Source: Acidobacteriota bacterium (lineage in GTDB: Bacteria; Acidobacteriota; Vicinamibacteria; Vicinamibacterales; 2-12-FULL-66-21). From it: 64,000 nucleotides of DNA. A program made the translations under genes and the position numbers. The stretch lies in assembly GCA_016184105.1 (NCBI GenBank), contig JACPDI010000031.1:70673-134672 (forward strand), given 5' to 3'. Position 1 is the first letter of the stretch; each line of letters opens with the position of its first letter. The notes below the pieces were generated by a model. The model saw nothing but the letters and a program-made list of their open reading frames with translations. It was not told where the DNA came from and did not search any database. This document shows positions 5,001 through 35,655 of this stretch, piece after piece.

Positions 5001-6052
5001 GCCTCCACCGTGACCACGGGCGCCGAGACCGGCAACGGCGCTTCCCAGGGGTACTCAATCGGCTGTCGCATCGCGTAGCAGGTTTCGATGAGCGCCACCG
5101 ACTTTCGCCCTTCCCCACCGGTCACCCTCGGTGGCCGTCCATCACGAATGGCATCACGGAAGTCCTCCAGTTGACGCGTGCACAGGTCCACGAGGGATGC
5201 GGGAGGGGCTCCACCTGGTTCGATCGGCTTGCCCGCGAGGACCGTGCGCCGATCACCGACGGCGAGGCGCACCGTTGAGTCTGTCTTGGTACCTACCTCG
5301 AGGACGCCGTAATGGCCTTCGAGGAGAGCGGTCCCAGGGAGATCGCGCGTGCGGCTCAGCGCAACCACAGCGCCAACTCCGTCGGGCAGGCCGACGCGGA
5401 TCTCACAGTCCGCCTCGACGCCACCAGCGGCGTCGTCGCGGTAGCTGAGGATCTCACAGTCGCCGAACCACCACACGAGAAGATCGAGGACGTGCGCCCC
5501 CGCGTCGGCGAGGACACCGCCCGCGGGGCGCTTGAACATCGCATCCGAAGCCAGCATCCACCGATATGCGGCGCCTTCGCGAATCTCCACTTTCTTCAAC
5601 CGCCCGATGAGACCTGTATCGATCGCACTCTTCGCGAAACGAAGCGAATCATGGAACCGCCGAAGAAGCCCGACCGCCAGCACGCGACCCGCCGCCTCGG
5701 CGGCGGCGATCATGGCGTCACACTCACCGGCATGGAGGGCCATGGGCTTCTCGACCAGGACATGCACGCCGCCGTCGAGCAATTCCGTCGAGATGTGCGC
5801 GTGGAGGTGATGCGGCACGGCGATGATCGCGGCATCGACACGGCCGATCGCTTCTCGATAGTCGGTACCGGTCGCCGGAACGGCGAACGCGCGAGCCAGG
5901 CCCGCTGCCCGGGGCACATCCGTGTCAATCAGCAGCGTCGTTCGCATGCCGGATATCGCTGCGAGGCTTGGCAGATGGACGAGCTGGGCGACGGCGCCGC
6001 ACCCGATGACAGCCACACGCAAATCGCTCAAGGCAGGACCCCATTGACGCAT
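4997..6052 (-). CDS. Gfo/Idh/MocA family oxidoreductase
   Basis: VAVIGCGAVAQLVHLPSL N-terminal Rossmann fold, EKPMAL motif. First gene of the minus-strand operon 6052->1601. Confidence 0.8.
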   Translation of the reverse strand: MRQWGPALSDLRVAVIGCGAVAQLVHLPSLAAISGMRTTLLIDTDVPRAAGLARAFAVPATGTDYREAIGRVDAAIIAVPHHLHAHISTELLDGGVHVLVEKPMALHAGECDAMIAAAEAAGRVLAVGLLRRFHDSLRFAKSAIDTGLIGRLKKVEIREGAAYRWMLASDAMFKRPAGGVLADAGAHVLDLLVWWFGDCEILSYRDDAAGGVEADCEIRVGLPDGVGAVVALSRTRDLPGTALLEGHYGVLEVGTKTDSTVRLAVGDRRTVLAGKPIEPGGAPPASLVDLCTRQLEDFRDAIRDGRPPRVTGGEGRKSVALIETCYAMRQPIEYPWEAPLPVSAPVVTVEA

Positions 6053-29669: not shown

Positions 29670-32600
29670 TCAGTGAAAGTCGCGCGCCTCGACATCAGGG
29701 CCGCCGCCGCCGAGACCGTACAACCGCTCAGCTTTAATGGACGTCACTCCTTCCTGGATTTGCAGTGTGCCTTCCACCAGCAGGTAAGCCTCGCCGACCA
29801 CCGAACGCCGCTGCTTGGCGAACAGATCCGGCCGGACGATGATGTTGGCGATGCCCGTTTCGTCTTCAAGCGTGAGAAAGACGAACCCTTTCGCGGTGCC
29901 CGGCCGCTGGCGCGCGATGACGGCGCCCGCGACGCGCACGCGGCGGCCGTGCCGCCCCTGCGGCAGATCGCAGGCGCGCAGCACGCCGCGCAGCGCCAGC
30001 TCCTGGCGCCTGAGCGACATCGGATGCGGCCCGATCGTGAGACCGGTGCCCGCATAGTCCGCCTCGATGCGCTCGGCAAGCGTCATCCGGGCCAGCGGAC
30101 TCGCGTCGGCGGGGTCGGGAACCTGGGACCCGGGATCCGAAAACAGCTCACCCGCCGGCCGCATCGCGCGCTCGATCTGCCACATCGCGGCGCGCCGCTC
30201 GTAACCGAACGCGTTGAGCGCGCCGATGTCAGCCAGCGCGCGCAGCTCGTCGCGATGCACGCCGCTGCGCGCCACGAAGTCGTCCAGGGAGGTGAAGCGC
30301 GAAGGCGGCCGGCTGCACGTGGCACGTCGCACGTCGCACGTGGCACGTGGCACGTGGACCGCCCACTCGTGCGCGCAGACGCTACAGAAGCACGTCGTCC
30401 CCACGCGCTCGATCATCGCTTCGTCGTCCGAACCGCACTTGGGGCAAATGTCACGTGCGACGTGCGACGTGCCACGGTGCGACGTGCGATCGTGCGACGT
30501 GCGATCGTGCGACGTGCGATCGTGCGACGTGCGATCGTGCGGCGGACCGGCCTGCTCGATGGCCTTTCCCGCCTCCGCGCGCAGCCCATTGACGTATCGC
30601 AGCCCGAGGCGCACGCGCCCGTCCTCCTCGATGCTGCAGCCCCACCCCGACACCTGCACGTCGATCGGCGCGAAGCGCACGCCGCGGCGCTGCGCATCCT
30701 TGACGAGCGTGGCCGGCGAGTAGAACCCCATCGGCTGGTTGTTCAGCATCGCGGTGTAGAACGCCGCCGGGTAATGCGCCTTCAGGTAGGCGCTGGCATA
30801 GACGAGCAGCGCGAAGCTCGCGGCGTGCGACTCAGGGAAGCCGTAGAGCGCGAACGACGTGATCGCGCGGATGATCTCCTCCGCCGCGTCGTCACCGATC
30901 CCCTGCTTCGCGATGCCATCGCGCAGCTTCTGTTCGATCACGCGCATCCGCTTCTCCGAGCGCTTGAAGCCGAACGCGCGGCGCAGCTCCTCCGCTTCCC
31001 CTCCCGTGAATCCCGCCGCGACCATCGCCATGCGCAGGAGCTGCTCCTGGAAGAGCGGCACGCCGAGCGTGCGCTCGAGGATCGGCGCGAGCGACGGGTG
31101 CGGGTACACCACCGGCTCCACGCCGCGGCGCCGCTTCAGGTACGGGTGCACCATCTGGCCGACGATCGGACCGGGCCGGATGATCGCCACCTCGACGACG
31201 ATGTCGTAGAAACGCTCGGGCTTCATCCGCGGCAGCGTGGCCATCTGGGCGCGTGACTCCACCTGGAAGATGCCGATCGTGTCCGCCTCCTGCAGCATGC
31301 GGTAGACCGCGGGGTCGTCGGGGGGGAGGTGGACCAAATCCAGAGGGGCCGCAGGCGCTCCTCTGGCCTCTGAATTCACAATCGTCAGCGCATCTTGAAG
31401 CACCGCCATCATCCCCAGTCCAAGCAGGTCAACCTTCACGATCCCCATGTCCGCGCAGTCGTCCTTGTCCCACTGCGCGACGACGCGGCCGGGCATGCTG
31501 GCGTTTTCGAGGGGAACGACTTCATCGAGCCGCCCCTGGCAGACGATCATGCCGCCGGAGTGCTGCCCGAGGTGCCGCGGCAGATCGTGGATGCGCTCCC
31601 ACAGGTGGCCGAACGTGCGCAGCGCCGCGTTGGCGGGATCGAGCCCCGCGTCGCGCAGGTGCCGCTCGAGCGTGTCCTTCGGGTCGATCCACTCGAAGGG
31701 GTTCATCACCTTCGCCAGGCGGTCCACCTCGCCGGGCTCCAGCCCGAGGACCTTGCCGATATCGCGCGCCGCGCTGCGCCCGCGATAGGTGATGACGTTG
31801 GCGGTCATTGCCGCACTCTGCCCTTCGGGGGCCGCACTCTGCCCTTCGGGGGGCGCGCCACGCTTCCCGTAGCGCTCGTAGACGTACTGAATCACTTGCT
31901 CGCGGCGGTCGCCGCTCGGCAGATCGAGATCGATGTCGGGCCACTCGCCGCGCTCCTCGGAAAGAAACCGTTCGAAGAGCAAATCCATCCCGACCGGGTC
32001 CACCGCGGTGATGCCCAGGCTGTAGCAGACCGCGCTGTTGGCCGCCGAGCCGCGCCCCTGCACGAGGATCCCGTGCTGCCGGCAGTAGTTCACGATGTCC
32101 CAGACGATGAGGAAGTACCCGGCGAGATCGAGCTTCTCGACGAGCGACAGCTCGCGCTCGATCTGCGCGCGCGCGCGCGCGTGGTACGGCCGATAGCGCT
32201 CGCGCGCCCCCGCGTCCGTGATCTTCCGCAGGAACGAGCCCATCGTCTCGCCGGCGGGCACGGGGTACTCGGGAAAGCGGTAGCCGAGATCGGCCATCGT
32301 GTACTGCAGGCGGTCCGCCAGATCGCGCGTCGCCGCCACCGCGTGCGGCAGATCGTGGAAGAGCACCGCCATCTGCTCCGGCGACTTGAGGTACCGCTCC
32401 GCGTTCACGCTGAGGCGCCGGCCTGCGCGCGCGATCGTCGTCTTGTGACGGAGGCACGTGAGGACGTCGTACAGCGGGCGATCGGCCGGCTCGGCAAAGC
32501 GCACGCCGTTGGTCGCGATGACGGGGACGTGAAACGCCGAGGCCAGCGACAGCAGCGCGTGGTTGTCCGATTCCTCGTCGCGGCGCAGATGGCGCTGCAG

Positions 32601-33122
32601 CTCGACGTACACGCTGCCGCGCCCGAACATGCCGACGGCGCGGTCGACGAGCCCGCCCACGCCGTGCCGCGGCCCCTGCAGCGCCTCGCGCCCGATGAGC
32701 GCGACGAGCCCCGCCGTGCGGCCGTCGAGCTCCTCGAGGTCGAGCGACCCCTCGCCTTTCGGCGCGCGGAGCTTCATCTGCGTGATCAGGCGGCAGAGAT
32801 TCTTGTAGCCAATGGCGGACTCGACGAGGACCGGGAGACGCCAGAGGGAGAAAAAGGGGTCGGGAGCCTTTTTCGAGGCGTCAACGGCGAAAAAGGCTCC
32901 CGACCCCTTTTTCTCCCTGATCGTGATCTCCGCGCCGACAATCGCGCGCAGCCCCGCTTTCTTCGCCGCCAGGTGAAATCGCGGCGCGCCGTAGAAGCCG
33001 TCTCGATCGACGAGGGCGAGCGCCGGATAGCCGAGCGCCGCCGCGCGGTCGACGAGCGCTTCGGGCAGCGAGGCGCCGTCGAGGAATGAAAAGGCCGAAG
33101 CGGAATGGAGTTCGATATACAC
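29670..33122 (-). CDS. dnaE2: Error-prone DNA polymerase III alpha subunit DnaE2 (ImuC), with several in-frame insertions
   Basis: GTG start, then MYIELHSASAFSFLDGAS PHP domain. Pol III alpha core motifs run throughout and a C-terminal OB region is present. Sits downstream of imuA-imuB. Confidence 0.9.
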   Translation of the reverse strand: MYIELHSASAFSFLDGASLPEALVDRAAALGYPALALVDRDGFYGAPRFHLAAKKAGLRAIVGAEITIREKKGSGAFFAVDASKKAPDPFFSLWRLPVLVESAIGYKNLCRLITQMKLRAPKGEGSLDLEELDGRTAGLVALIGREALQGPRHGVGGLVDRAVGMFGRGSVYVELQRHLRRDEESDNHALLSLASAFHVPVIATNGVRFAEPADRPLYDVLTCLRHKTTIARAGRRLSVNAERYLKSPEQMAVLFHDLPHAVAATRDLADRLQYTMADLGYRFPEYPVPAGETMGSFLRKITDAGARERYRPYHARARAQIERELSLVEKLDLAGYFLIVWDIVNYCRQHGILVQGRGSAANSAVCYSLGITAVDPVGMDLLFERFLSEERGEWPDIDLDLPSGDRREQVIQYVYERYGKRGAPPEGQSAAPEGQSAAMTANVITYRGRSAARDIGKVLGLEPGEVDRLAKVMNPFEWIDPKDTLERHLRDAGLDPANAALRTFGHLWERIHDLPRHLGQHSGGMIVCQGRLDEVVPLENASMPGRVVAQWDKDDCADMGIVKVDLLGLGMMAVLQDALTIVNSEARGAPAAPLDLVHLPPDDPAVYRMLQEADTIGIFQVESRAQMATLPRMKPERFYDIVVEVAIIRPGPIVGQMVHPYLKRRRGVEPVVYPHPSLAPILERTLGVPLFQEQLLRMAMVAAGFTGGEAEELRRAFGFKRSEKRMRVIEQKLRDGIAKQGIGDDAAEEIIRAITSFALYGFPESHAASFALLVYASAYLKAHYPAAFYTAMLNNQPMGFYSPATLVKDAQRRGVRFAPIDVQVSGWGCSIEEDGRVRLGLRYVNGLRAEAGKAIEQAGPPHDRTSHDRTSHDRTSHDRTSHRGTSHVARDICPKCGSDDEAMIERVGTTCFCSVCAHEWAVHVPRATCDVRRATCSRPPSRFTSLDDFVARSGVHRDELRALADIGALNAFGYERRAAMWQIERAMRPAGELFSDPGSQVPDPADASPLARMTLAERIEADYAGTGLTIGPHPMSLRRQELALRGVLRACDLPQGRHGRRVRVAGAVIARQRPGTAKGFVFLTLEDETGIANIIVRPDLFAKQRRSVVGEAYLLVEGTLQIQEGVTSIKAERLYGLGGGGPDVEARDFH
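30315..30356 (+). repeat. Heptamer tandem array (GCACGTS x6) inside dnaE2
   Basis: gcacgtg gcacgtc gcacgtc gcacgtg gcacgtg gcacgtg, 42 nt. On the coding strand it translates as VHVPRATCDVRRATC. Confidence 0.9.
30452..30540 (+). repeat. Inverted-orientation heptamer / 15-mer tandem array (SACGTGC units; gacgtgcgatcgtgc x4) inside dnaE2
   Basis: cacgtgc gacgtgc gacgtgc cacggtgc, then four copies of gacgtgc-gatcgtgc. Encodes (HDRTS)x4. The units are the reverse complement of those at 30315-30356. Confidence 0.9.
31810..31851 (+). repeat. Perfect 21-bp tandem duplication inside dnaE2
   Basis: gccgcactctgcccttcgggg x2, encoding PEGQSAA-PEGQSAA. Confidence 0.9.
32846..32917 (+). repeat. 72-nt perfect palindromic element inserted in frame in dnaE2
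   Basis: 28-nt arms gggagaaaaaggggtcgggagccttttt / aaaaaggctcccgacccctttttctccc around a 16-nt loop. 24 codons (EKKGSGAFFAVDASKKAPDPFFSL). Confidence 0.9.
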
Positions 33123-33191
33123 GAAGGTTCACACGAAGGTTCACACGAAGGTTCACGCGAAGGCTCACGCGAAGGCTCGCACGAAGGTTCG
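33120..33191 (+). repeat. 12-bp tandem array x6 abutting the dnaE2 start codon (imuB-dnaE2 spacer)
   Basis: cacgaaggttca x3, cgcgaaggctca, cgcgaaggctcg, cacgaaggttcg. On the coding strand the units read TGAACCTTCGTG, and the last GTG is the dnaE2 start. Confidence 0.9.
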
Positions 33192-33248
33192 ACCGCGCGC
33201 TCTGAATCCTCGCCGGAACCACCGTTCGAACCCTCGTGAGAACCTTCG

Positions 33249-34721
33249 TCAGTCCAGAATCCCCTCTACAAACCACCTGTCCTCGTGACGATCGCGGCAG
33301 ATCCGGTAGGCCGCGCCGTCGGCGAGCGTTACGTCGTATTCATCGCGGTCCCAGCAGGCGCCGGGGTCGCGGCCGCTCCACCAGCCGCCGGACGATCGCC
33401 ACGGCCCGGCGCACTGCTCCACCGCGCCGCCGCGGATGCCAATCCGATCCGTGGTCACGCGCGCCACCCGCTCGCCCTCGAGCGCCACGCGCGCGACAAC
33501 GGGGATGCGAAAGCGTCGCAGAACAGGTCTCGCCTTCGCGCTTCGCGCTTCGGCGCAGCTGGCGCCCCTGTTCGCGCTTCGCGCTTCGGCGGGCGCGAAC
33601 GGCGCGAGCGTGAACGCGTCCGGCGCGTGCGAGTCGAGGAGCACCGGCGAGCCCACGCGTCCCTCTCCCATCAGCGCCGTCAGCCTCGACACCACCGTCG
33701 CGATCGTTTCGGGCTGCGTCCCGGCGCGCTCGAGCAGCGAGAACTGGACGATGCGTCCCGGGGCCGGCTCGAGCCGGACGGCGATACGATCGATGCCCGC
33801 CGGCGGCGGATGGGACTCGAGATCGAGCAGGATGAGCGTGCGCAGCACGCGCGCCTCGCGCATCGGCGCGGGCAGCTCGATGCGCCGCACGTGCGTCTCG
33901 CGCGTCTTCGTCCCGTCCGCATCCACGCGGGCGGTCACGAGCGTGAGCGTCGTCTCGAGAACGGCTGCGCCGCGATCGGCGCGCTCGAGCGCGGCGCTCA
34001 ACGGATCGAGCAGCCGCGTGAGCACGAACGACACCGGCTGCAGCGCGTCGAGCGGCCACTCGAGATCGAAGGACGCCTCGAAGCGCGCCTCGTCGAGGAC
34101 CGGCACGAGCGGCTGCGTGTCGAGGCCGCGCGCGAACCGCTGCAGCACGACGCCGGCCTGGCCGAGCCGCGCCGCCAGATCGGCCGCGGGCAGCGCCGCG
34201 AGATCGCCGAGCGTGACCAGCCCCCATCGGCGCAGCGTGGCAAGCTCGGTGCACGCGCCGCCCGGCTCGCCGCAACGGCCGGGCGCGCCGGCCAGGCGGC
34301 ACAACGCGCAGGCGCGAACAAGGGGCCGGGAGCCTTTTTTCTGCAGCCGCGGCGGTAAAAAGGCTCCCGGCCCCTTGTTCGCCGCCAGCGTGTCGAACAC
34401 CTCCAGCGACAGCGCGCCCACGGCGGCCGCGGTCCTCCCCGGCAGGACGACGCTGTACGGCTGCGCGATGGCGAGCAGGAGGGCCGCCGTGCGGGAGGGC
34501 GCGACCGCCACCGACACGGTCACGTGCGGCGTGCGACGTGCGGCGTGCGACAGTTCTTCCGCGATCGCCGCGGCATCGCCAACGATGCGCGTGAGGCCGG
34601 CGGTGTCGATGAGCACCAGCCGCCCGCCGAGCTGCGGCTCGACGCGCGGCGAACACGCCTGTGCCGCGGCAAGCAGCGCAGCGGCATCCTTACTGTCCGG
34701 GCTGAACAGTGCGGCGAACAC
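33249..34721 (-). CDS. imuB: ImuB, Y-family-polymerase-like mutasome subunit
   Basis: Position between imuA and dnaE2, and VFAALFSP...LVLIDTAGLTRIVG N-terminus. I propose the GTG at 34721, preceded by GGAGG-containing repeats. The ORF-track start at 34829 lies inside imuA. Confidence 0.75.
   Translation of the reverse strand: MFAALFSPDSKDAAALLAAAQACSPRVEPQLGGRLVLIDTAGLTRIVGDAAAIAEELSHAARRTPHVTVSVAVAPSRTAALLLAIAQPYSVVLPGRTAAAVGALSLEVFDTLAANKGPGAFLPPRLQKKGSRPLVRACALCRLAGAPGRCGEPGGACTELATLRRWGLVTLGDLAALPAADLAARLGQAGVVLQRFARGLDTQPLVPVLDEARFEASFDLEWPLDALQPVSFVLTRLLDPLSAALERADRGAAVLETTLTLVTARVDADGTKTRETHVRRIELPAPMREARVLRTLILLDLESHPPPAGIDRIAVRLEPAPGRIVQFSLLERAGTQPETIATVVSRLTALMGEGRVGSPVLLDSHAPDAFTLAPFAPAEARSANRGASCAEARSAKARPVLRRFRIPVVARVALEGERVARVTTDRIGIRGGAVEQCAGPWRSSGGWWSGRDPGACWDRDEYDVTLADGAAYRICRDRHEDRWFVEGILD
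33535..33606 (+). repeat. Imperfect 36-nt tandem duplication inside imuB
   Basis: ttcgcgcttcgcgcttcggcg occurs at 33535-33555 and at 33571-33591. Encodes the AEARSA...AEARSA repeat. Confidence 0.75.
34314..34382 (+). repeat. 69-nt perfect palindromic element inserted in frame in imuB (same family as 32846-32917)
   Basis: 26-nt arms gcgaacaaggggccgggagccttttt / aaaaaggctcccggccccttgttcgc around a 17-nt loop. 23 codons (ANKGPGAFLPPRLQKKGSRPLVR). Confidence 0.9.
34521..34548 (+). repeat. Heptamer array (cacgtgc ggcgtgc gacgtgc ggcgtgc) inside imuB
   Basis: Same SRCGTGC unit family and orientation as 30452-30540. Confidence 0.8.
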
Positions 34722-35493
34722 TCCCCGAACCTCCGTGCGCACCTCCGTGCGAACCTCCGTGCGAAGCCCGCCCCAGCACGCGCGCCTGCGGCGCAATCCC
34801 GTCGAACAGCCGCGCGCGCGCCGACGCACCGCGCCACCGGGGCGCGGCGGCGCCGCCGAGCACGATCGTCACGCCCCCCGCGCTGCGGCCGGCGCGCTCG
34901 GGCGCGACGAGCAGCGCGGCGGTGGATCCCCCTTCGATCAGCCGCGCCAGGCGAAGCCAGGTCGTGAACGGCAGCCGCCGCAGGACGGGCGGCGGCACGT
35001 CGGCGAGATCGCAGACCGCGAGGCCGAAGGCGCGCGACTCCAGCACGACGGTGAACGCCTTGAGCGCGCGCTCCACTGCACGCCAAAGCGATGAGGTGTT
35101 TCCCGGCGCCGCGTGCCCGCTCGCGCGGATCGCCTCGACGCTGGCCGCCACGCCGCGCACCCACAACAGGTTCCCGAGCTGCACCCCCGTGGCCGCCGCC
35201 GACTCCACATCGAACCGATCCAGCGCGTCCACCAGCGCCGCCGCCCCGCCGGCCGCGGTCGCCGACGCAAGCGCGGCACACATGAGCGTGGTCCGCCCGG
35301 TGGAGCGCGCTCCCGCAATCTCCGACAGCTCACCCCGCGGCAATCCACCGCCAAGCCGCGCGTCGATCTCGGCATGGCCGAGCGGCAGCAGCGGCCGCCC
35401 GGCGTCGAGCGCCGGGCGCAGGTGCGTCAGCGTGGCGTCGAGCTTTTTCGCGCGAAGCAGCGATTCGAGGTGGGCGCGGGCCGCGGCAGCCAT
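34690..35493 (-). CDS. imuA: ImuA, RecA/SulA-like mutasome subunit
   Basis: LPLGHAEIDARLGGGLPRGELSEIAGARSTGRTTL Walker-like segment. First gene of the cassette. ATG at 35493. Confidence 0.75.
   Translation of the reverse strand: MAAAARAHLESLLRAKKLDATLTHLRPALDAGRPLLPLGHAEIDARLGGGLPRGELSEIAGARSTGRTTLMCAALASATAAGGAAALVDALDRFDVESAAATGVQLGNLLWVRGVAASVEAIRASGHAAPGNTSSLWRAVERALKAFTVVLESRAFGLAVCDLADVPPPVLRRLPFTTWLRLARLIEGGSTAALLVAPERAGRSAGGVTIVLGGAAAPRWRGASARARLFDGIAPQARVLGRASHGGSHGGAHGGSGSVRRTVQPGQ
34727..34762 (+). repeat. 12-bp tandem array x3 at the imuA 3' end / imuB start
   Basis: gaacctccgtgc gcacctccgtgc gaacctccgtgc. The coding strand reads GCACGGAGGTTC, so each unit contains GGAGG. Encodes (SHGG)x3 at the ImuA C-terminus. 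The unit resembles the reverse complement of the 33120-33191 unit. Confidence 0.85.
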
Positions 35494-35568: not shown

Positions 35569-35578
35569 CATCGCCGCG

Positions 35579-35630
35579 GAACACGCAGAACACGCGGAAA
35601 AATACGGGATCCTGCGTGTTCAGCGCGTTC
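35579..35630. promoter_or_regulatory. Inverted repeat with GAAC/GTTC tetrads in the imuA / MFS divergent region (candidate operator)
   Basis: GAACACGCAGAAC ... 26 nt ... GTTCAGCGCGTTC. The inner arms GAACACGCAG / CTGCGTGTTC are perfectly complementary over 10 nt. Confidence 0.35.
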
Positions 35631-35655
35631 CGCGGCGCAGCCCTCTCCTGCTAAG

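Follow-up and report, generated by a model that had tools for sequence, protein, structure and literature searches.

Inverted heptamer arrays around a predicted zinc ribbon in a Vicinamibacterales dnaE2 gene, and paired repeats along the imuA-imuB-dnaE2 operon of Acidobacteriota

The stretch of DNA considered here (the window) is 64,000 nucleotides long, derives from a soil Acidobacteriota bacterium of the order Vicinamibacterales (assembly GCA_016184105.1, contig JACPDI010000031.1, positions 70,673 to 134,672) and carries an operon of the order imuA-imuB-dnaE2, with dnaE2 as its final gene. DnaE2, together with ImuA and ImuB, has been described as the main damage-induced mutagenesis machine of about one-third of bacteria (PMC11002988). 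The gene in the window is a bona fide dnaE2: Pfam matches to PHP, DNA_pol3_alpha, DNA_pol3_finger, HHH_6 and the OB fold are all five above threshold, the domains follow the C-family order (PHP, palm/thumb, fingers, helix-hairpin-helix, OB fold), and residues 3-851 are aligned by Pol III alpha structures. Near its 3′ end, an in-frame insertion encodes a predicted four-cysteine zinc ribbon, and this ribbon is bracketed by two arrays of 7-nt repeats that lie in opposite orientation. Additional arrays and palindromes are present in the same operon, which holds all of the strong tandem arrays of the window (Table 1).

Table 1. Genes, insertion and repeats of the imuA-imuB-dnaE2 operon, with positions counted from the first nucleotide of the window
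Feature	Positions	Strand	Basis or remarks
dnaE2 (imuC), error-prone DNA polymerase, 1150 aa, GTG start	29670-33122	minus	Open reading frame and translation, Pfam, Pol III alpha structure match
Insertion of 83 codons, aa 859-941: N-side linker, predicted zinc ribbon, C-side linker	30300-30548	minus	Interrupts Pfam HHH_6
Predicted zinc-ribbon core CPKCGSDDEAMIERVGTTCFCSVCAHEW, aa 893-920	30363-30446	minus	Invariant Cys, homologs, AlphaFold2
C-side array, six heptamers, plus-strand GCACGTS, encodes VHVPRATCDVRRATC	30315-30357	minus	Reverse complement of N-side units
N-side array, (CACGATCGCACGTCG)x4, CACCGTGGCACGTCG, CACGTCG in gene orientation	30453-30541	minus	Encodes (HDRTS)x4 HRGTS HV
Hairpin-forming segment, arms 30318-30345 and 30449-30476	30318-30476		Arms of 28 nt, 96% complementary, 103 nt apart
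Tandem repeat of a 21-mer within dnaE2 (APEGQSA x2.2)	31810-31856	minus	Tandem Repeats Finder
Perfect in-frame palindrome within the dnaE2 PHP domain, encoding ...EKKGSGAFFAVDASKKAPDPFFS...	32845-32918	minus	31-nt arms, 100%, 12-nt spacer
12-mer array GAACCTTCGTGT x6 and degenerate inverted copies upstream	33119-33249	minus	47-nt arms, 77%; imuB-dnaE2 junction hairpin
imuB, inactive Y-family, 490 aa	33249-34721	minus	99% identical to P0121; relatives named 'protein ImuB' in their sources
imuB palindrome, in frame, same sequence family as PHP palindrome	34314-34382	minus	34-nt arms, 91%
Related heptamer array in imuB, CGCACGY x4, encodes SHAARRTPHV	34521-34551	minus	87-89% complementary to dnaE2 C-side arm
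imuA, 267 aa, RecA-like	34690-35493	minus	Pfam RecA; 267-aa gene call likewise in L105-L112
12-mer array x3.3 at imuA C-terminus (HGGS repeats), just before imuB start	34726-34765	minus	Complementary to junction array
9-mer hairpin (GAACACGCR units) upstream of imuA	35572-35637		24-nt arms, 92%, 18-nt spacer

The Pfam HHH_6 match in DnaE2 is split after profile position 44, and alignment with Pol III alpha places the insertion in the loop between two helix-hairpin-helix motifs. In the minus-strand open reading frame, the peptide across this region is ...AGKAIEQAGPP(HDRTS)x4HRGTSHVARDI-CPKCGSDDEAMIERVGTTCFCSVCAHEW-AVHVPRATCDVRRATCSRPPS-RFTSLDDF. To place the segment among relatives, 80 Acidobacteriota loci were fetched and the codons between the anchors RLGLRYV.GL and PF.SI.DL were counted (fetched comparison loci and contigs are labeled L001-L114, and all relatives are metagenome-derived). 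The spacing is exactly 25 codons in Terriglobales, Pyrinomonadaceae, Bryobacterales and others, where the ribbon is absent, versus 65-135 codons in loci at the level of Vicinamibacteria, which establishes a true, class-level insertion. An initial reading of the window from its sequence only (the sequence-only reading) had proposed that the segment is extra to DnaE2 and that it encodes a four-cysteine zinc ribbon, and the homologs bear out both proposals.

The best 120 homologs of the C-terminal half of the protein, which are 55-70% identical, carry the ribbon without exception, at the same site and with the pattern CPKCG[CSN][DE]D.SM[IL]E...FCN[IV]C[AS]HEW. Few of these homologs come with a source name, and those that do are labelled as Vicinamibacterales or Acidobacteriota metagenome-assembled genomes. 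Across an alignment of 105 sequences, C893, C896, C913 and C916 are invariant, as are K, D, M, E, F and W residues. An AlphaFold2 model built with the same alignment gives the ribbon a predicted local distance difference test score (pLDDT) of 78-93 and three short strands (segment residues 148-151, 154-157 and 163-165), while both array-encoded linkers fall below 50 and are modelled as disordered. On the strength of four ligands in two CxxC knuckles and this modelled fold, the segment is a predicted zinc ribbon that sits in a surface loop between the helix-hairpin-helix motifs of the duplex-DNA-binding domain, where it presumably serves in DNA or partner binding.

Searches of the core against families and structure profiles, which the sequence-only reading had recommended, produced matches but none that is significant. 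The Pfam family Zn_Ribbon_YjdM is matched with an E value of 0.02 and 15.2 bits against a cut-off of 30.8, the archaeal RpoM ribbon (PDB 7oqy_Y) with an E value of 0.009, below the family threshold, and no curated zinc-ribbon family gives more than such scores (13-15 bits versus 30.8). A fold search with the DnaE2 model retrieved Pol III alpha and OB folds only and gave no ribbon-specific match. No such insertion is mentioned in surveys of polymerases of the C and Y families, and our literature searches found no description of a zinc ribbon between the helix-hairpin-helix motifs of a C-family polymerase.

Because the ribbon is present in 120 of 120 homologs, has invariant cysteines, is modelled with confidence and is missing from three other Acidobacteriota lineages, it is ancestral, an old and vertically inherited insertion domain of Vicinamibacteria DnaE2. 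Vicinamibacteria-type dnaE2 genes with the ribbon also occur in metagenome-assembled genomes titled Acidimicrobiia or Bifidobacteriaceae (L005, L007, L008, L011 and L017), and these titles probably reflect mislabelled taxonomy or mis-binned contigs.

The two arrays that flank the ribbon in the window are built from units that are reverse complements of one another. On the plus strand, the C-side array is a run of GCACGTG-type heptamers (6.1 copies with 94% matches according to Tandem Repeats Finder and a repeat finder), and the N-side array consists of ACGTGCG heptamers that an extra base has turned into the 15-mer ACGTGCGATCGTGCG, which can be read six times (6.0 copies). The double-unit pattern GCACGTSGCACGTS has seven exact occurrences at the ribbon arrays. 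When one mismatch at most is permitted, 12 occurrences are found in the 64-kb window versus 0.73 expected, a number that none of 100 shuffled sequences reaches, and no copy of the heptamer pattern lies outside the operon in these 64 kb.

As the sequence-only reading had stated, the arrays bracket the ribbon in inverted orientation, and a change by a single heptamer shifts the reading frame. The score for complementarity of the arms is 25.5, compared to a maximum of 10 in 200 shuffles, and the nucleotides that the arms enclose are those that code for the ribbon. In the predicted fold of the sense RNA, the two arrays form a single extended stem (−141 kcal/mol, z −2.98), and the same pairing of arrays is predicted for the sense-strand DNA (z −3.20). 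A search of Rfam gave nothing at gathering scores; the sub-threshold matches are of the generic miRNA-precursor hairpin kind and fall on palindromes only.

Many relatives retain the ribbon in the absence of such arms. In L003, L004, L008, L012, L017 and others, the C-side linker is only 24-30 nt long and the two sides are not complementary, and thus the ribbon is independent of the arms. Long linkers on both sides are present in nine loci, and in seven of these they are complementary, with scores of 18.5-30.5 for the ungapped comparison of the N-side linker with the reverse-complemented C-side linker, versus maxima of 10-12.5 in 200 shuffles. These complementary arms differ by lineage. Sequences such as CGTGGCACGTCG... 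occur among them, and locus by locus they are CGTGGCACGTCGCACGTG (the window and L001), CGGCTGGCGACTCGCGATTCGCGGC (L002), (CGGGATC)n (L101), (CGGGGCT)n (L102), (GGGCTCG)n (L104) and a non-tandem 33-mer (L070). The linker peptides of homologs, such as GIRDPGS / SRIPDPGS, DSRFAVRDP / TANREPR and GLGARGSG / SPESRAPSPEP, are heptamers and their complements read in three frames. In L015 an inverted array pair lies within the loop of the ribbon itself, where L013 has a single tandem array. The arms are therefore secondary and lineage-specific.

A scan of metagenomes for close relatives returned 12 loci, all of which are distant, and nested inverted heptamer arrays are found even there. L002 has nested arrays around its zinc ribbon, at positions 5668, 5760, 6600, 6829 and 7051. 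A nested in-frame hairpin of similar structure is found at positions 429-700 of L083 (SXGT01904881.1), whose DnaE2 is 27% identical, with the order (GTCAGGG)n (GATTTGA)n, loop, (TCTCAAA)n (CCCCAGC)n.

Strains of the same species reveal that repeat numbers change. A search with ImuB assembled a same-species set of eight contigs, three from NCBI and five from Logan assemblies, with 98.6-99% DNA identity to the window, and L001 is a ninth member. Relative to the window, the indels of the operon are changes in repeat units plus a single nucleotide in the spacer of the hairpin upstream of imuA, which is deleted in all same-species contigs. The junction 12-mer has six units in the window versus four in all eight contigs, and the copy number of the 21-mer is 2.2 in the window versus 3.2 in L105 and L106, whose DnaE2 proteins are 1157 residues long.

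At the ribbon, the array lengths of L105, an independent assembly of the same species, are identical to those of the window, and the arrays therefore are not an assembly artefact. The N-side 15-mer is present four times in the window and L105 and five times in L001 and L106, and the heptamer CACGTCG of the window and L105 is missing from L001. L105 and L001 have the same number of units in the C-side array as the window, with 2-3 substitutions. Within the N-side array, substitutions are found in none, two or three of the 15-mers. Unit-number polymorphism among close strains, which the sequence-only reading had suggested looking for, is thus present in the four or five copies of the 15-mer and in the presence or absence of the heptamer, and the invariant repeat numbers that would have spoken against instability are not what the strains show.

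The N-side changes of L001 amount to +15 and −7 nt, or a net gain of 8 nt, that shifts the frame of dnaE2 and brings a TGA codon into the ribbon, in this one metagenome-derived contig; a second open reading frame begins at the methionine of the ribbon. With a unit length of seven, which three does not divide, an allele can lose dnaE2 function, as in this case. One more gene with an internal split was seen on a JGI contig, as a gene call unaccompanied by its DNA sequence. About 60 of the 80 loci are in a single frame, as judged from tblastn frames, and the broken loci are mostly contigs with names in the style of long-read assemblers that carry several shifts each, which are not used as evidence here.

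We rejected as candidate split genes a group of 29 gene calls that start from the invariant methionine of the ribbon. L113 and L114 are contig-edge cases in which the open reading frame runs open to the edge of a contig that ends in the N-side array. Other assemblies likewise end at repeats. The N-side array is the end point of L106, the 21-mer that of L108 and L001, and the PHP palindrome that of the Logan contigs, which are assembled from short reads; the assembly GCA_040960765.1 is broken at the 21-mer.

The window is one instance of a pattern that extends through the phylum. In a census of 53 Acidobacteriota imuA-imuB-dnaE2 loci with full flanks, arrays of at least three copies and a score of at least 40 were counted in the 6-kb cassette and in flanks of about 7 kb per locus, and 172 were found in cassettes versus 21 in flanks. 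Operon specificity is gauged against these flanks and the 64-kb window. Most cassette arrays are of period 7 (120 of 172), followed by period 8 (21) and period 14 (8). Relative to the dnaE2 start, they are concentrated at −100 to 0, which is the commonest site across loci, at +200 to +300 and at +2400 to +3000, and the junction hairpin, the PHP palindrome and the ribbon arrays of the window coincide with these three hot spots. Outside cassettes arrays are few, and most of these are hairpins between genes.

Neighboring arrays tend to be inverted copies of each other. When two arrays are separated by 0-50 nt, 33 of 83 pairs are inverted, compared with 2 in direct orientation, and at 50-100 nt inverted pairs number 17 of 36. 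For arrays more than 300 nt apart, sharing of units is 5-8 times commoner within a locus than between loci. The 5′ arm is more often the G-rich one (32:17) or the purine-rich one (34:17), in non-independent counts from 53 inverted array pairs. No such arrays were found in six cassettes from other phyla or classes, namely those of Ca. Manganitrophus (whose DnaE2 is 57% identical), Burkholderia, Methylocella, Ralstonia, Thermomicrobium and Streptomyces. Paired, mostly heptameric arrays therefore occupy a few permissive sites along the imuA-imuB-dnaE2 operon of Acidobacteriota, and our literature searches found no description of this operon-wide pattern.

The remaining repeats of the window illustrate how such sites are filled in one genome. 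The junction 12-mer array ends exactly at the GTG codon of dnaE2 and its inverted copies start right after the imuB stop codon, such that the entire intercistronic region can be folded into one hairpin; no Shine-Dalgarno motif was found near the start codon. The sequence family shared by the PHP and imuB palindromes has no further copy in the 64-kb window. Whether arrays of the heptamer kind bound other insertions in the genome was a check raised by the sequence-only reading, and within the window they proved to be internal to the operon only.

Each repeat family has one site near the end of imuA or the start of imuB and another site in or before dnaE2. The upstream copies of the 12-mer and of the heptamer are complementary to their dnaE2-side partners, and the third family consists of palindromes. 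With this paired placement, long-range pairing or copying across 1.5-4 kb would be possible.

Some units recur beyond the window. Those of 9 nt containing GAAC are found at several cassette sites in other Vicinamibacteria (L010, L015 and L062), and CACAGAG / CACGGAG unit families are found in arrays of different Terriglobales (L024, L025, L028 and L053), where they resemble the 12-mer TTCGCACGGAGG at the imuA C-terminus of the window. Some units may consequently be older or more constrained than a picture of rapid turnover implies. The 9- and 12-mers with GAAC/GTTC were considered as LexA boxes and dropped, since their spacings are N5 and N8 versus the GTTC-N7-GTTC box of Alphaproteobacteria and Acidobacterium.

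The account that we consider best, with a probability of roughly 55%, is that slippage and template switching generate hypermutable, hairpin-forming repeats and that the disordered linkers around an old zinc ribbon tolerate them. The locus would then have two layers of different age, of which the ribbon is the old one and the repeats in its linkers are the younger. Disordered and permissive, these linkers would have been colonized in the lineage of the window by 7-nt repeats, one array of which was re-patterned to 15 nt. With the arrays in opposite orientation, one strand could fold into a long hairpin whose loop is the segment that codes for the ribbon.

The anatomy of the arrays and published mechanisms suggest that replication slippage would make them grow, shrink and turn over, and that hairpin-templated strand switching (quasipalindrome correction) would maintain and extend the complementarity of the arms. 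The same kind of short-range copying may spread units between sites of the operon. A hypermutable gene would be the result, its instability a tolerated by-product that is perhaps exploited. Heptameric repeats are over-represented in bacteria, possibly via polymerase slippage (PMC4692102), and template switching between the arms of inverted repeats is reported to homogenize and expand them (PMC13100816, PMC8604942, PMC7202029).

Several observations weigh against this account. Neutral tolerance leaves unexplained both the roughly 10-fold higher density of arrays in the operon than in its flanks and the restriction to Acidobacteriota, and the preference for units of 7-8 nt inside coding sequence is the opposite of what tolerance at the protein level alone predicts. 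Among the 53 loci of the census, 16 have no array at all, and the maximum per locus is 16. The mismatches between arms on the sense strand are unexplained as well, with A:C outnumbering G:T by 105 to 53 in non-independent counts from 53 inverted pairs (L002-L082 and the window). Moreover, slippage and template switching are inferred, not observed. One might speculate that the operon is singled out since its transcription coincides with perturbed replication, a state in which template switches are frequent.

Two alternatives concern function and are compatible with the origin proposed above. In one, the arrays constitute a selected contingency (phase-variation) switch, with non-triplet arrays kept so that slippage toggles the mutasome and cells with and without error-prone synthesis coexist. 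Such a switch would account for units that are overwhelmingly 7 or 8 nt inside open reading frames, for arrays that are specific to one operon and one phylum, and for copy numbers that vary among near-identical strains, including the frameshifted allele of L001 and perhaps the split gene of the JGI contig. However, a single frame is kept by most loci, disruption is found mainly in long-read-style contigs with several shifts, and gene calls that begin in the ribbon proved, in the two cases read, to be contig-edge effects. The arrays are also short (4-6 units) and placed at several sites that include the 3′ part of the gene, many have periods of 9, 12, 15 or 21 or are true palindromes and are unable to shift the frame, and a slippage switch has no need of inverted pairing. 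We therefore regard selected switching as unlikely. Of the on/off switch suggested by the sequence-only reading, the unit-number polymorphism and one frameshifted allele stand, against a single frame in about three-quarters of the loci.

In the other, mRNA or single-stranded DNA stems are selected to reduce or modulate how strongly the mutagenic polymerase is expressed, for instance through RNase III cleavage, ribosome stalling, occlusion of the start codon at the junction, or protection of upstream mRNA in the manner of repetitive extragenic palindromes (REP). Stems of this kind would explain why complementarity is retained while the sequence of the arms changes between lineages, why the arrays pair in predicted RNA and DNA folds with z values near −3, why the site immediately upstream of the dnaE2 start codon is the commonest, why nearby array pairs are overwhelmingly inverted and why the G-rich or purine-rich arm is mildly biased to the 5′ side. 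The mismatches nevertheless show no sense-strand excess of the G:U-compatible type, and in fact the excess is opposite. No Rfam family is matched, the loci devoid of arrays and the many Vicinamibacteria with a ribbon and no arms do without such stems, and template switching alone would be able to keep arms complementary. Regulation by these hairpins accordingly strikes us as rather improbable.

Explanations that concern the origin or rearrangement of the ribbon fare worse. The sequence-only reading had cast the segment as a module bounded by terminal inverted repeats that added the ribbon to dnaE2, and a miniature mobile element of this type would fit the inverted arms around a compact coding module and the GCCGG(T)CCGCC-like sequence on both outer sides, a possible target-site duplication. 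Yet the ribbon is at the same site in all sampled Vicinamibacteria, with or without arms, and only the arms vary and are not conserved between lineages. Operon-internal arrays apart, the 64-kb window holds no copy of the element, and the flanking GGCCGG motif is self-complementary and lies within the predicted stem. We regard this origin as very improbable and already refuted for the most part. That the segment could instead be an ancestral conserved domain free of repeats was a possibility raised against the module, and it holds in part: the ribbon is ancestral and some lineages are repeat-free, but the linkers in the window are built from repeats.

A further proposal is that the 159-nt segment is inverted when the arms recombine or the template is switched from one arm to the other, with another peptide replacing the ribbon. 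The inverted allele would remain open in frame, and inversion of the spacer is a reported outcome of template switching between inverted repeats (PMC8604942). We give an inversion switch hardly any weight: no inverted allele was found in L001, L105 or more than 120 homologs, and at 70% G+C antisense frames often lack stop codons.

The account of tolerated hairpin repeats can be compared with several known systems. Contingency loci are phase-variable genes of Haemophilus, Neisseria and Campylobacter, and the dnaE2 arrays resemble them in that a non-triplet unit lies inside an open reading frame, copy number differs among near-identical strains and one allele is out of frame; the reversible switching that defines those loci is hypothetical for dnaE2. 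Unlike in those loci, most genomes here are in frame, and several short arrays are present per gene, some near its 3′ end. The target, furthermore, is neither a surface gene nor a restriction-modification gene but a DNA polymerase, and inverted pairing is outside that paradigm.

The palindromic elements of Rickettsia are in-frame palindromic insertions in protein genes that form dispersed families with conserved sequence. They share with the operon the toleration of hairpin DNA in frame at surface loops, the PHP palindrome being the closest counterpart. The repeats described here differ in showing no dispersal in 64 kb and in having arms that are lineage-specific repeats. The ribbon itself is like those of Zn_Ribbon_YjdM/PhnA and of RNA polymerase subunit M/TFIIS in its two CxxC knuckles 16 residues apart and, in the model, its three-stranded sheet. 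It is unlike them in its sub-threshold scores and in being embedded between the helix-hairpin-helix motifs of a C-family polymerase.

The closest precedent for paired heptamers comes from the heptameric repeats of Xanthomonas (GGGAATC) and Nostoc, which in Xanthomonas often form convergent inverted pairs capable of stem-loop formation (Rehm et al. 2015, PMC4692102). The operon arrays also consist of 7-nt tandem units in convergent inverted pairs. In Xanthomonas and Nostoc, array length varies between related strains while the type of repeat is kept, and the function is unknown (PMC4692102). Those arrays, however, are mainly intergenic, G-rich and quadruplex-forming, with one unit used genome-wide at about 190 sites (PMC4692102), whereas the arrays here are in frame in coding sequence, concentrated in one operon and composed of lineage-specific units, and CGCACGT has no G runs. 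Quasipalindrome template-switch mutagenesis, which is reported to homogenize and extend imperfect arms, would fit complementary arms with turnover of sequence. It is a mutational process rather than an element family, tandem-repeat arms are not its classical substrate, and its action here is inferred.

Three features of this system were not described in the surveys and literature that we searched: a conserved ribbon inside the helix-hairpin-helix domain of a whole class of DnaE2, phylum-wide non-triplet hairpin repeats concentrated in the coding sequence of this operon, and strain-level evidence that the repeats are indel hot spots of the operon, able to inactivate the polymerase. They also have a practical consequence, as the repeats break metagenome assemblies and dnaE2 gene calls at predictable points.

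A bolder suggestion, which we hold to be doubtful, is that the operon is a self-destabilizing locus across Acidobacteriota. Self-complementary heptanucleotide arrays, specific to each lineage, would be retained at a set of permissive positions, namely the junction of imuB with dnaE2, the loop in PHP and the linkers that border the helix-hairpin-helix domain and the ribbon. By slippage and hairpin formation they would stochastically switch or throttle the polymerase, and mutation supply would itself be under hypermutable control. If the instability is not selected, the operon would still offer a clean natural system for observing how paired repeats arise and persist within genes through slippage and template switching. 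If it is selected, it would represent contingency control over a mutator function in abundant soil bacteria.

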